Source: Methanobrevibacter sp.
Lineage (GTDB): Archaea > Methanobacteriota > Methanobacteria > Methanobacteriales > Methanobacteriaceae
Assembly (NCBI RefSeq): GCF_045646205.1
Contig: NZ_JAZRKF010000019.1
Span: forward strand, 96,379 to 128,378
Reading direction: 5' to 3'
Length of the DNA stretch: 32,000 nucleotides
A program made the translations under genes and the position numbers. Below, one piece after another: positions 14,050-16,900 of the stretch. The notes under the pieces are model-generated. The model worked only from the letters and a program-made list of their open reading frames with translations, did no database searches and had not been told where the DNA came from. Each line of letters opens with the position of its first letter. The first letter of the stretch is position 1.

Positions 14050-14820
14050 ATGTACCTGAAAAATAGCGAAATATATCTAATTGTTGGAACAATAGCAATA
14101 ATTGTTGTATTTTTGGCTTTTTGTCCTATACAAATAATAACAGTCAATGACCAAATATTCTTTAACACATTTTTTAATCTGAAATTTGAAGACGGTGGTG
14201 TGTTTGCAGCTATTGTTGTTGGAATTATTACAATTTTAGTCAGCAGCTATTATAATAATAAAACTTACAAATCTACTAAGTTAGCTTCCATACCAACAAA
14301 TTCCGCTAATTTATTAATCGATTTAGAGTATATATTCAATGAATATGAAATATATAAGAAAAATAACGATGATGATGTTTTACTATTACTTCTTCAGGTA
14401 TTAAGTTACTGGAAGCAACATCAAAAAGTATTCAGACTATTAACACCTAATTTTTATAAAAAATTTTTAAAATTATGGTCTAAAGCCGAAAGTTTCAATG
14501 AAAATGACAGTATTCATGTAAAAAACAGTAAATACATATTTAATTCAATAATAATTCAGCTTTCCGATATTGCTTTGAGGGATGAAAATCATTCTTTTTC
14601 ATTTGTTAAGCCAAAATTAGTTAACGATGACGAAGATATTGAAAGTGTAAAAAGAGAATATATTGAATTTAATATTAGTAAAAAGAATATTTTGTATTTT
14701 ATTAATAAAATTTCCGGTCCTAAAACTAGAAAGGAGACTGAAAATAAATTTTTAAAATTTTATAAAGATTTGGATACTTTATTCAACGATTTAAAAAAAG
14801 AAATTCAGGAATATGATTAA
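14050..14820 (+). CDS. Two-TM membrane protein with an alpha-helical cytoplasmic domain (cassette gene C)
   Basis: 256-aa ORF. Hydrophobic helices are IYLIVGTIAIIVVFLAFCPIQII (nt about 14071-14139) and GGVFAAIVVGIITILVSSYY (nt about 14197-14250). The remainder is K/N/E-rich and helical. I recognise no family. Confidence 0.6.
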   Translation: MYLKNSEIYLIVGTIAIIVVFLAFCPIQIITVNDQIFFNTFFNLKFEDGGVFAAIVVGIITILVSSYYNNKTYKSTKLASIPTNSANLLIDLEYIFNEYEIYKKNNDDDVLLLLLQVLSYWKQHQKVFRLLTPNFYKKFLKLWSKAESFNENDSIHVKNSKYIFNSIIIQLSDIALRDENHSFSFVKPKLVNDDEDIESVKREYIEFNISKKNILYFINKISGPKTRKETENKFLKFYKDLDTLFNDLKKEIQEYD

Positions 14821-14845
14821 TTTTAACATTTGAAGTAGTGATTGA

Positions 14846-16900
14846 ATGTTTGATGTAGATATTGCAATAAAAAATGAAAATGAGGATGTTTTAAATCGTG
14901 GAGATTTTGCCAAAAAATTGGCAAAAAGCATAATGGATTATTCCGAACCATATCCATTAACCATTGGCCTAAATGGAAATTGGGGATCTGGAAAAACATC
15001 CCTGATTAATCTAACATTAAATTACATTGAAAGTGAAAATGATGAAGATAATTTCATCATTGTGCATTTTAATCCATGGTTTTTTTCAAACCAAAAAAAT
15101 CTATTCTTAGAATTTTTCAAATTAATAATTGATTCATTGAAAACTAAAGAAACAGAAAAAGAGTCTTTTATAGAAAGAACAATGTCTCCACAAAGGACTA
15201 TCTTTAGAAAAACAGAAATTGAAGTGTTGGAAGATTATTCTAATTATATTAAACTTAATTTAGATGATACTCATGAAGTTAATGATATTTATTCACATTC
15301 AGTAGACGCTACCGATTCATTGAGTTTTTATAAAAATCAATGCAATGAATATTTCGAAAGATTAAATTTTAAGGTTATTGTGGTTATAGACGATATTGAA
15401 CGCTTGATTGATGCTGAAATTAATCAGATATTTACATTAGTCAAATCCCTAGCTAATTTTAACAATTTTATTTATCTTCTTAGTTTTGATAAAAATATCA
15501 TAGAAAAATCATTGGATAAGATTAACTCCGAAGAGGGAGATAAGTTTATTGATAAAATCATACAGATTCCAATTATCATTCCACCAGTAAGCGAATCAAA
15601 GTTAAACGAATTGATTCAGAAAAATTTAGAACCTATTTATTCAGATTACATGGGAAAAGACTTTATAAATCATTATCATGAATTTATCAAAGTTTCAAAT
15701 TTTTTAAACCTTTTTATTAAGGATATACGTGACTTAAAGAAATTCACTAACCTGTTAAATTTCTATTGGCAGATATTTGTCAAAGAACTGAATATCAATG
15801 ATTTCATATTGATGCTGGCCATACAGCTATTTGATTATGACTTATTTTTAAAAATAAAAAATCATAAGGATTTGTTAACGGCCAATAATCGATTATTCAA
15901 GACAAATGATGTTGATATTGATCAGGAAATATCTGATGTACTCAATGATTTTGAAGAAAATGAAAATCTAATAGAATTATTGAGCTTCATTTTTCCTATA
16001 CTTGGAGGTAAAACGAATATTGATTATGAAAAATGGGATAAAAATCATAATGCATGCAGCGATAAGCATATTGACAAATATTTCCTATTATCTCTTGAAA
16101 ATAACGAAGTCAGTACCTTACTATTGGATAAATTAGTTAAAATGGACAATGAAATTGAAATATATGAAGTTTTCACACAAAAAACTAACTTGGATTACAA
16201 TCATTCTTTATTATATCACTTTTTAAAATTACTTCCTCAAATACCAAAGGAAAACAGTGAATTCTTTATTAAAGCATTATTGAGATGTGGGGATGAGATG
16301 AATTTATATCCTGATTCAAGAAGACTGTTAAAAATTATTTTGGATAACTTATTTGAAAAAATAGACGATAAAAACAAATGTCATGCTATTTTAAAAGAAA
16401 GCTGTGGCTATGAAAATAACTTGCTTACCCATACACAACATATCTATTCAATTTCATCTGATTCAAATATAAGTGAAAATATCAACTTTGGTGAATCTTA
16501 CAGCTTCAAGCAACTTGATGAACTTAAAAAACTGACAATAAGCAAATTATGTGATTGCTGTCAATGCAATAATTTAATAAACAAAGCATTTTTAGCGGAT
16601 ATCTTATGTTATTGGAAATTGATTGATGATGAAGAAAATGTTAATGAACACATAAGAAATAGCGTTAAAACAGATGAGGAAATATTAACTTTATTAAACA
16701 ATTTCCAAACAACAAACAATAATGAATGGAATTTTGATTTTGAGGAATTGGATAAATATCATGGATTGGATGCTTATGAAAATACCTTGTCCAGAATAAA
16801 ATCTAATGAAATCCTCCCAATTGAAACAAAGAAATTCTGTGAAACATTTATTGACCAATCACAAGAATTTAAGAATAAAAATAACATTAACCCTCAGTAA
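14846..16900 (+). CDS. KAP-family P-loop NTPase, soluble form (cassette gene D)
   Basis: The N-terminus, DVLNRGDFAKKLAKSIMDYSEPYPLTIGLNGNWGSGKTSLINL, is the textbook KAP opening (D.l.R..fa..la..i + G.WGSGKTS Walker A, nt about 14966-15010). Walker B is KVIVVIDDIERL (DD at 15389-15394). Then comes LLSFDK. No hydrophobic insertion lies between Walker A and B. An AGTGAT RBS is present. Confidence 0.85.
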   Translation: MFDVDIAIKNENEDVLNRGDFAKKLAKSIMDYSEPYPLTIGLNGNWGSGKTSLINLTLNYIESENDEDNFIIVHFNPWFFSNQKNLFLEFFKLIIDSLKTKETEKESFIERTMSPQRTIFRKTEIEVLEDYSNYIKLNLDDTHEVNDIYSHSVDATDSLSFYKNQCNEYFERLNFKVIVVIDDIERLIDAEINQIFTLVKSLANFNNFIYLLSFDKNIIEKSLDKINSEEGDKFIDKIIQIPIIIPPVSESKLNELIQKNLEPIYSDYMGKDFINHYHEFIKVSNFLNLFIKDIRDLKKFTNLLNFYWQIFVKELNINDFILMLAIQLFDYDLFLKIKNHKDLLTANNRLFKTNDVDIDQEISDVLNDFEENENLIELLSFIFPILGGKTNIDYEKWDKNHNACSDKHIDKYFLLSLENNEVSTLLLDKLVKMDNEIEIYEVFTQKTNLDYNHSLLYHFLKLLPQIPKENSEFFIKALLRCGDEMNLYPDSRRLLKIILDNLFEKIDDKNKCHAILKESCGYENNLLTHTQHIYSISSDSNISENINFGESYSFKQLDELKKLTISKLCDCCQCNNLINKAFLADILCYWKLIDDEENVNEHIRNSVKTDEEILTLLNNFQTTNNNEWNFDFEELDKYHGLDAYENTLSRIKSNEILPIETKKFCETFIDQSQEFKNKNNINPQ

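Follow-up and report, generated by a model that had tools for sequence, protein, structure and literature searches.

Genes C and D and Their Expression Signals

This study concerns two adjacent genes, C and D, in a stretch of 32,000 nucleotides (nt) from Methanobrevibacter sp. (contig NZ_JAZRKF010000019.1, positions 96,379 to 128,378), referred to below as the window. Gene C (14050-14820) encodes a 256-amino acid (aa) integral membrane protein of an orphan family and gene D (14846-16900) a soluble, 684-aa KAP P-loop NTPase of the PifA family; these genes and all other features of the window lie on the forward strand unless stated otherwise. Our analyses showed that C is the conserved upstream partner of the KAP gene, that the two genes have co-diverged, and that the pair is restricted to a single clade of PifA-like ATPases, in which a segment between the Walker A and Walker B motifs has lost its hydrophobicity. 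An initial reading of the DNA and its open reading frames (the sequence-only reading) had described a 256-aa protein with two transmembrane (TM) helices encoded 25 nt upstream of a KAP gene, and both reading frames were confirmed, on the same strand and separated by a spacer of 25 nt (14821-14845). The G+C content drops to about 0.25 across the pair.

A TATA-like box, ATATAAAT (14016-14023), is located 27-34 nt 5' of the C start codon and is a candidate archaeal promoter element for a C-D operon. A TTATAAAT or ATATAAAT element was present 21-38 nt 5' of the C start in six of seven loci, although in an AT-rich genome such a call carries limited weight and is suggestive only. No Shine-Dalgarno motif was found ahead of C at any of the seven loci compared, and this, together with the TATA-like box, points to C having its own promoter and a short or absent leader. 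A Shine-Dalgarno-like GTGAT (14838-14842) lies within the spacer, 3 nt 5' of the D start codon, and a purine-rich motif (GTGAT, GGGAT or GAGGAG) or a stop/start overlap was found at seven of eight C-D junctions, which suggests that translation of D is coupled to that of C. The translation signals predicted at the two genes fit an operon. The stop codon of D is overlapped by a convergent gene (16894-17613, reverse strand), so the C-D unit ends there.

Gene D Encodes a Distant Member of the PifA Family

The protein encoded by D matched the Pfam family KAP_NTPase (PF07693) over residues 19-307 (profile positions 2-289 of 293, E 5.4e-47, 160.9 bits against a cut-off of 20). Its Walker A motif, GNWGSGKT (residues 44-51, 14975-14998), has G44, W46, G47, G49 and K50 invariant in alignment A2, and its Walker B motif, VVIDDIER (residues 178-185, 15377-15400), has I181, D182 and R186 invariant in the same alignment. 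These results bear out the KAP N-terminus and Walker motifs recognized in the sequence-only reading. Both the Pfam match and the structural model showed the P-loop domain to be contiguous and complete. With more than 460 homologues, D is a real gene and not a chance open reading frame.

The PADLOC profile for PifA (PDLC02361) matched D over residues 3-661 (profile positions 6-708 of 720, E 2.8e-65). D scored 219 bits on this profile and authentic PifA 963 bits, indicating that D is a distant member of the family. For comparison we used PifA of the F plasmid, a 741-aa protein that excludes phages T7 and T3, is listed in both PADLOC and DefenseFinder and is encoded downstream of pifC (L089, 7446-9671, reverse strand). 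BLASTP aligned D to F PifA over the N-terminal 281 aa only, at 25% identity, and hhalign of the D-family profile against F PifA extended across 667 columns and PifA residues 13-736 of 741 (99.9% probability, E 2.1e-34). On the strength of these profile alignments we consider D to be a full-length homologue of F-plasmid PifA. The earlier label of "Tmn/PifA-like" had merged two families, of which only the PifA half stands, as D had no Tmn model among its PADLOC matches (E<=0.01) and no Pfam match to YobI.

The region of D that follows the P-loop domain (residues ~308-684, 15767-16897) is all-alpha in the AlphaFold model and homologous to the C-terminal region of PifA. The C-terminal ~450 aa had previously been considered unrecognized, a description that does not survive the reach of the PADLOC profile to D residue 661 and of hhalign to PifA residue 736. 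Based on the model, this region is a candidate sensor or oligomerization domain. The top match of the D model among solved structures was the RdrA ring ATPase of RADAR (8hr8, E 1.3e-05, probability 1.00), with a low global TM-score (~0.3), and the next fold matches were to ORC/Cdc6 and STAND-type ATPases. These modelled similarities fit an oligomerizing switch ATPase. No solved structure within the D family was found by sequence.

Three relatives of D with 42-45% identity to it (P0040, P0045 and P0056) carry a C-terminal fusion to a ThsB-type TIR domain, as in Thoeris-like systems; D itself has no such domain. The KAP gene is altered in several other genomes. It is shorter in L098 (8784-10613) and L100 (1088-2935), where it encodes 609-615 aa as compared to 671-684 aa elsewhere, and in L006 it is split into two reading frames (8791-10569 and 10566-10805; 592 and 79 aa). 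These shortened or split genes may represent C-terminal truncation or decay of the ATPase, with C remaining intact.

Gene C Encodes a Membrane Protein of an Orphan Family

TM segments in C and D were called from two hydrophobicity scales, KD19 (threshold 1.6) and a Hessa-type scale, in conjunction with AlphaFold models. The AlphaFold2 model of C (predicted local distance difference test score 76.7) has two TM helices joined via a short beta-hairpin. TM helix 1 (residues ~8-26, 14071-14127) had a KD19 peak of 2.65 and a Hessa sum of -1.4 kcal/mol and was modelled as a helix at residues 3-24; across the family its sequence is variable and its hydrophobicity is kept. The loop that follows (residues ~27-48, 14128-14193; net charge -2) is predicted to be extracytoplasmic, with modelled strands at residues 26-32 and 35-40 and conserved positions at L44, K45 and D48. 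TM helix 2 (residues ~49-67, 14194-14250) had a KD19 peak of 2.12 and a Hessa sum of +0.8 kcal/mol, and the modelled helix extends over residues 49-79. It contains a small-xxx-small motif, G50, A54 and G58, that is invariant in alignment A1, and G58 was invariant in all 21 sequences of the broad alignment A3, the most distant members included.

The remainder of C (residues 68-256, 14251-14817) begins with a Lys-rich juxtamembrane stretch (+3) and is helical in the model (residues 88-176 and 224-255). Many positions in this domain are invariant, including L248, K249, E251, I252, E254 and Y255 in the C-terminal helix, which ends in ...DLKKEIQEYD in the window protein; a tail of ...DLKREIEEYD is near-invariant within the KAP-linked subgroup of the family. 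Based on the positive-inside rule, with the +3 stretch after TM helix 2 and the acidic (-2) loop, both termini and the ~185-aa helical domain of C are predicted to be cytoplasmic, in the same compartment as D.

A profile search of 1.84 billion representative proteins identified a C family of 37 clusters and no matches outside this family. The length of the protein is conserved, with nearly all members of the homologous clusters (26-37) being about 230-300 aa or fragments thereof, and both N-terminal hydrophobic segments were present in every full-length member. The ratio of non-synonymous to synonymous substitution rates (dN/dS) of C was 0.14 against L008 and 0.29 against L001, indicative of purifying selection. 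Together, the homologues of conserved length and the purifying selection indicate that C is a real gene rather than a chance reading frame. C had no match in Pfam (E<=0.01), NCBIfam, PHROGs or PADLOC, and Foldseek comparison of its model to PDB and BFVD returned nothing under E 0.3. A divergent subgroup of the family (L009 10360-11121 and L096 320-1102) has about 23-31% identity to C, the same length and two TM segments.

C Is Paired with a Single Clade of PifA-Like KAP Genes

C directly precedes a PifA-like KAP gene, with both genes on one strand, in about ten distinct loci (the window, L001-L004, L005, L006-L008, L010, L090, L091/L092, L093, L094 and L098-L100), with junctions ranging from an 8-nt overlap to a 25-nt gap. 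These pairs occur in at least six genomic contexts and at identities as low as 38%, and their flanking genes vary (Nop/fibrillarin, flavodoxin, nucleotide-sugar enzymes and others). A scan of JGI metagenome contigs with the C alignment A1 added one further locus only, L090.

In a neighbor-joining tree of 85 PifA-like KAPs, the nine distinct C-adjacent KAPs all fell in a single Methanobrevibacter clade, and C is present upstream in every member of this clade, which is that of D. The sister of the C-linked clade is L009, in which a divergent C-like gene is located 3 kb away from the KAP gene. The next Methanobrevibacter branches (L011, L012 and L095), all bacterial branches and F PifA are without C. 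The two genes have co-diverged, as shown by the correlation between their pairwise identities (Mantel r=0.75, p~4e-4). A survey centered on D produced the same picture, as among 138 KAP genes with sufficient upstream sequence C was upstream in 16, all of D's clade, and the other 122, from outside the clade, all lacked a small upstream gene with at least two TM segments. Downstream of KAP genes, TM-protein neighbors were only sporadic. The clade-specific association of C and KAP is thus complete in this sample of 138. It follows that conservation of the 2-TM gene beside KAP homologues, raised in the sequence-only reading, is genuine within D's clade and that TM-less KAPs in general are not preceded by such a gene.

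TIR-fused relatives of D also have C. Ahead of the gene for P0056, at a distance of 5 nt, is a member of the C family (L091 5105-5995, E 8e-82; L091/L092). We considered the possibility of effector swapping, with C an alternative to the TIR fusion, and ruled it out because the TIR-fused KAPs retain C upstream; C therefore appears to be more than one option in an effector menu.

Two of these loci contain additional KAP genes. In L091 a second PifA-like KAP gene, in divergent orientation, lies together with DUF6119 and DUF2971 genes (3-4350, reverse strand) beside the TIR-fused C-KAP locus, and L010 also has a second KAP paralogue, which indicates that several PifA-like paralogues cluster in these genomes. 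Distant PifA-like KAPs were found on 61 bacterial viral or proviral contigs (L101-L161), often near contig ends, and none of these contigs has a C-family gene. A viral origin of C-D was considered and rejected on the basis of these C-less contigs and of the absence of C and close D relatives from IMG/VR.

The C-Linked Clade Has Lost a Semi-Hydrophobic Walker A-B Segment

No TM-competent segment was found anywhere in D (maximum KD19 1.36, best Hessa sum +7.2). The sequence-only reading had noted that there is no hydrophobic insertion between Walker A and Walker B, and this proved correct, as the maximum KD19 there was -0.31. However, its premise that KAP proteins are characteristically membrane-embedded does not apply to D's relatives. 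TM helices in or beside the NTPase domain occur in many KAP proteins but not in all, and PifA, one of the founding members, is without them. F PifA had a maximum KD19 of only 1.27 and is described as lacking TM helices (PMC13001434), and 97 of 120 listed D homologues had no segment at or above the threshold, most of the others having one marginal segment. The PifA subfamily is therefore normally TM-less, and a soluble KAP such as D is not anomalous.

The insert between the Walker motifs of D (residues ~95-166, 15128-15343) is hydrophilic, and AlphaFold confidence was low at residues 105-158, as expected for an exposed, flexible element. This is the site at which TM-bearing KAPs carry a hairpin, and hydrophobic segments between Walker A and Walker B were evident in some distant KAPs, with two strong ones in P0135 (~137 and ~159) and one in P0128. 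The hydrophobicity of the insert was measured using the alignment columns between the two motifs. The insert was hydrophilic in all nine C-adjacent KAPs (maximum KD19 <=0.18, median -0.22) and in the L009 sister-clade KAP (-0.28), whereas in 74 full-length C-less relatives the maximum KD19 ranged from 0.16 to 1.82, with a median of about 0.86, the least hydrophobic of them slightly overlapping the C-linked range. The nearest C-less Methanobrevibacter outgroups had values of 0.78-1.11. The difference between C-linked and C-less inserts gave a Mann-Whitney p of ~1e-6, a value that overstates independence, as the change represents a single evolutionary event. The gain of C and the loss of insert hydrophobicity coincide on the tree.

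The corresponding insert of F PifA is semi-hydrophobic (VLPLVQYIGQFSSIINWIA, residues ~144-162, KD19 1.17). A Gly/Pro-rich "IPVxG..." motif is frequent in the inserts of C-less relatives and recurs among bacterial PifA-like proteins. The "IPVxG" segment of the bacterial proteins may be the membrane-association element of PifA.

Neighborhood of the C-D Pair

The window is a segment of archaeal chromosome that also encodes SurE, a beta-helix adhesin-like protein and a PAS histidine kinase, and its closest named relatives are Methanobrevibacter metagenome-assembled genomes from rumen and gut. Upstream of C are two overlapping genes. Gene A (9726-12110) encodes a protein with two C-terminal RyR repeats (Pfam E 9.5e-24), which also match ryanodine-receptor repeat structures, and with HD-like motifs (DHFLHS...; LFHDIGYP) in its N-terminal region. 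Gene B (12100-14010) overlaps A by 11 nt and encodes, based on Pfam, a DUF4062 protein with a STAND-type NTPase. The A-B module is downstream of C-D in L006, L008 and L098-L100 and absent from L001, L091, L093 and L094, which makes it likely to be a separate unit that often travels with C-D, the linkage being confined to the closest subclade. The order of the four genes is circularly permuted, being RyR protein, DUF4062-STAND, C and KAP in the window and C, KAP, RyR protein and DUF4062-STAND at three other sites. This permutation suggests either two 2-gene modules that travel together or movement via a circular or tandem intermediate.

A single Logan contig of 1840 nt encodes a 359-aa protein, P0025, in which residues 1-96 correspond to the N-terminus of C with both TM helices (81% identical) and residues 97-358 to the RyR repeats at the C-terminus of a protein resembling A (54% identical). 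It looks like the remnant of a C-KAP-RyR block from which the KAP gene was deleted, or else an assembly chimera.

Just downstream of C-D a gene at 18299-19798 encodes a protein with DUF2828 and DUF7788 and no PADLOC match. An AAA_14/DUF4143 ATPase encoded at 23141-24346 matches the PADLOC candidate defense family PDC-S01 very strongly (E 1.5e-154) and sits in the part of the window with the lowest G+C content (0.22-0.26 at 21-26 kb), a region flanked by a gene for a tyrosine recombinase of the phage integrase family (26502-27602). There were no tRNA genes in the window.

Proposed Role of the C-D Pair

Tentatively, and stopping short of calling it probable, we propose that C is the dedicated membrane partner of D, serving as its anchor and possibly also its output, in a PifA-type antiviral operon of two genes. 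In such a system D, as a soluble and probably ring-forming ATPase of the PifA family, would be the cytoplasmic sensor and switch, and recognition would likely fall to its large all-alpha C-terminal region. C would be a two-TM hairpin with both termini in the cytoplasm, whose conserved ~185-aa domain binds D and so places the ATPase at the cytoplasmic membrane. Within the C-linked clade, C would thereby stand in for the semi-hydrophobic segment that is built into other PifA-like proteins between Walker A and Walker B. Upon activation of D, the complex would act on the membrane as PifA does, by depolarization and leakage, possibly via oligomerization of the TM hairpin of C, and C-D would then be an abortive-infection-like, NTPase-driven system of a Methanobrevibacter-type archaeon.

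Several lines of evidence led us to infer a physical C-D complex, its recruitment to the membrane, an antiviral function and a membrane lesion. PifA acts at the membrane, where it causes depolarization and nucleotide leakage, lesions known for F PifA only, and where it is reported to be sequestered by FxsA (PMC13001434, PMC8125068); it is triggered by the T7 proteins gp1.2 and gp10 (PMC8125068), and KAP proteins have been found experimentally to be antiphage (PMC13552941). Retention of C by the TIR-fused relatives, which have a separate effector domain, argues that C is needed as an anchor. The loss of insert hydrophobicity in exactly the C-linked clade provided unexpected support for membrane contact being supplied in trans. 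The context is also that of defense: relatives of D have TIR fusions, the window encodes STAND-type NTPases, an integrase and the PDC-S01 candidate, and the top fold match of D is RdrA, whose ring acts together with an effector encoded by another gene.

A broader version of this proposal is that PifA-type ATPases generally need a physical membrane link for abortive infection, provided in bacteria by the "IPVxG" segment in cis, perhaps together with host membrane proteins, and in the archaeal clade by C, which would also be the permeabilizing output. We regard this generalization as speculative and rather unlikely in its full form.

There are also findings that weigh against the proposal that C is the dedicated partner of D. 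The correlation with insert loss is one evolutionary event, and in other PifA-like proteins the semi-hydrophobic insert might be structural and buried. Since F PifA functions as a single gene, the family has no intrinsic need of a partner, and conversely the C-like genes of L009 and L096 are not in an operon with a KAP gene, which shows that the C fold can exist without D. C was absent from the viral contigs of IMG/VR, and searches of that database found no link of an archaeal virus to the C-D locus. Lastly, these data do not discriminate between C as an anchor, as an effector and as a sensor.

Alternative Roles for C and D

The most serious alternative is that C is a toxin-like, pore-forming 2-TM effector and D only the sensor or gate that holds it inactive until infection. 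Small 2-TM effectors next to sensors are common in defense, as in CBASS, Pycsar and retron systems, and RdrA-like ATPases likewise pair with separately encoded effectors. Most members of the C-linked clade have no other recognizable effector domain, the invariant small-xxx-small motif of TM helix 2 (G50, A54, G58) is typical of helix-helix packing, and the PifA phenotype is a lesion in membrane permeability (PMC8125068, PMC13001434). However, F PifA makes membrane lesions without such a partner, TIR-fused KAPs keep C, and the large conserved cytoplasmic domain of C would be superfluous for a simple pore former. A KAP-gated effector, as suggested in the sequence-only reading, is still credible as one function of C, but as its sole role the idea is weakened by the TIR-fused relatives, and overall we consider this explanation possible but unlikely.

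C might instead be a membrane sensor of virus adsorption, genome entry or envelope perturbation that signals to D or to a D-TIR effector. Membrane sensors have precedents in defense, such as KwaA/KwaB of Kiwa and ZorAB of Zorya. C accompanies KAPs that already have an effector in their TIR domain, and its extracytoplasmic loop has conserved positions (L44, K45, D48 and G50), yet this loop is only ~22 residues in length. The ~380-aa variable helical C-terminal region of D is a more obvious sensor, as has been proposed for other KAP, STAND and Tmn ATPases (PMC13552941, PMC13001434), and PifA senses gp1.2 and gp10 of T7 in the cytoplasm (PMC8125068). We believe a sensory role for C to be improbable.

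A slimmer chance still is that C is a negative regulator, similar to FxsA or an antitoxin, that holds D inactive at the membrane, with activation consisting of the release of D. The membrane protein FxsA, which is unrelated, has been reported to sequester PifA and suppress exclusion (PMC8125068), and C is first in a tightly coupled operon, the typical order of antitoxin and toxin. Nevertheless, C showed no similarity to FxsA, with no Pfam family matched at E<=0.01, and most PifA homologues need no inhibitor of this kind. Loss of the hydrophobic insert in D also argues that C supplies a required function and not mere restraint.

It is also conceivable, though in our view very doubtful, that C-D is not antiviral at all and forms an NTPase complex at the membrane that serves in housekeeping or signalling, such as the assembly of an envelope complex. 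KAP NTPases are described as having first been proposed to regulate the assembly of membrane-associated complexes (PMC13552941, PMC13001434), it has been remarked that phage restriction is probably not the primary function of PifA (PMC13552941), and we found no virus link in IMG/VR. In opposition to this, the presence of C-D is patchy, varies from strain to strain and involves different chromosomal sites, its relatives are fused to ThsB-type TIR domains, it has defense-type neighbors and a low G+C content, and some strains have a truncated or split KAP gene, all of which are characteristics of defense-like rather than housekeeping genes.

Literal gene fission, in which C would be the membrane module split off from an ancestral KAP that had TM helices in its P-loop domain, is effectively excluded as the origin of C: some distant KAPs are hydrophobic between Walker A and Walker B (P0135, P0128) and the C-linked clade is without hydrophobicity at exactly that position, but fission at the insert would have cut the contiguous and complete P-loop domain of D in two, neither the nearest C-less relatives nor F PifA have true TM helices to donate, C has its own 185-aa domain with no detectable similarity to KAP or any other family, and C is encoded upstream of D, not in its middle. 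What remains of the earlier hypothesis of a membrane module split off into its own polypeptide is a functional version, in which membrane contact is provided in trans, and it is this version that the loss of the insert supports.

Comparison with Known Defense Systems

D resembles PifA in its full-length homology, its KAP P-loop domain with intact Walker motifs, its lack of TM helices and its large helical C-terminal region. It differs in being only ~25% identical and from an archaeal host, and in having a hydrophilic Walker A-B segment where that of PifA is semi-hydrophobic (VLPLVQYIGQFSSIINWIA). In addition, PifA is treated as a single-gene system, downstream of the repressor gene pifC, whereas D has an obligate upstream partner gene for a 2-TM protein. 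The polytopic membrane protein FxsA provides a parallel for C, as it interacts functionally with the TM-less PifA at the cytoplasmic membrane; however, FxsA is a chromosomal host protein that is not co-encoded with PifA, and it suppresses exclusion (PMC8125068).

Tmn is likewise an antiviral P-loop NTPase at the membrane with cytosolic helical sensor arms (PMC13001434). [quoted passage not shown] EF_KAP has a KAP domain followed by a large region of unknown function, as D does, and antiphage activity in the EF_KAP class depends on Walker B (PMC13552941). EF_KAP is a single polypeptide with one N-terminal TM helix and one in the KAP domain (PMC13552941), unlike the C-D pair, in which the TM helices are on a separate protein. 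With RADAR the pair shares the fold match to RdrA and the two-gene logic of a ring ATPase and a separately encoded partner, but the RADAR partner RdrB is an adenosine deaminase and that of D is a 2-TM membrane protein. The RdrA and RdrB profiles of PADLOC had no match in D or its neighbors.

Significance

The gain for annotation is small: a "PifA" call becomes a two-gene unit in the C-linked clade, and a KAP without TM helices ceases to be an anomaly. The PifA-type KAP ATPase was already known, and what is new here is a PifA-like ATPase with a dedicated 2-TM partner and the C family itself. We found no published description of either, and PADLOC 2.0 has no model for C, which makes the family a set of orphan membrane proteins that is missing from that defense catalogue.

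PifA was among the first phage-exclusion proteins to be described, and the means by which a TM-less protein causes membrane depolarization and leakage is still described as poorly understood. The C-D lineage, in which a PifA-like ATPase is hard-wired to a membrane protein and its own semi-hydrophobic insert has been lost, offers a testable handle on this membrane step and frames the questions of whether D is at the membrane only via C and whether C is the pore. The pair adds a candidate two-gene defense system to the gut and rumen methanogens, whose antiviral repertoire is poorly charted. If the broader version of our proposal is correct, C-D would present the PifA membrane step in a form that nature has divided between two proteins and that is accessible to experiment, and C would be the founder of a new archaeal family of membrane effectors.

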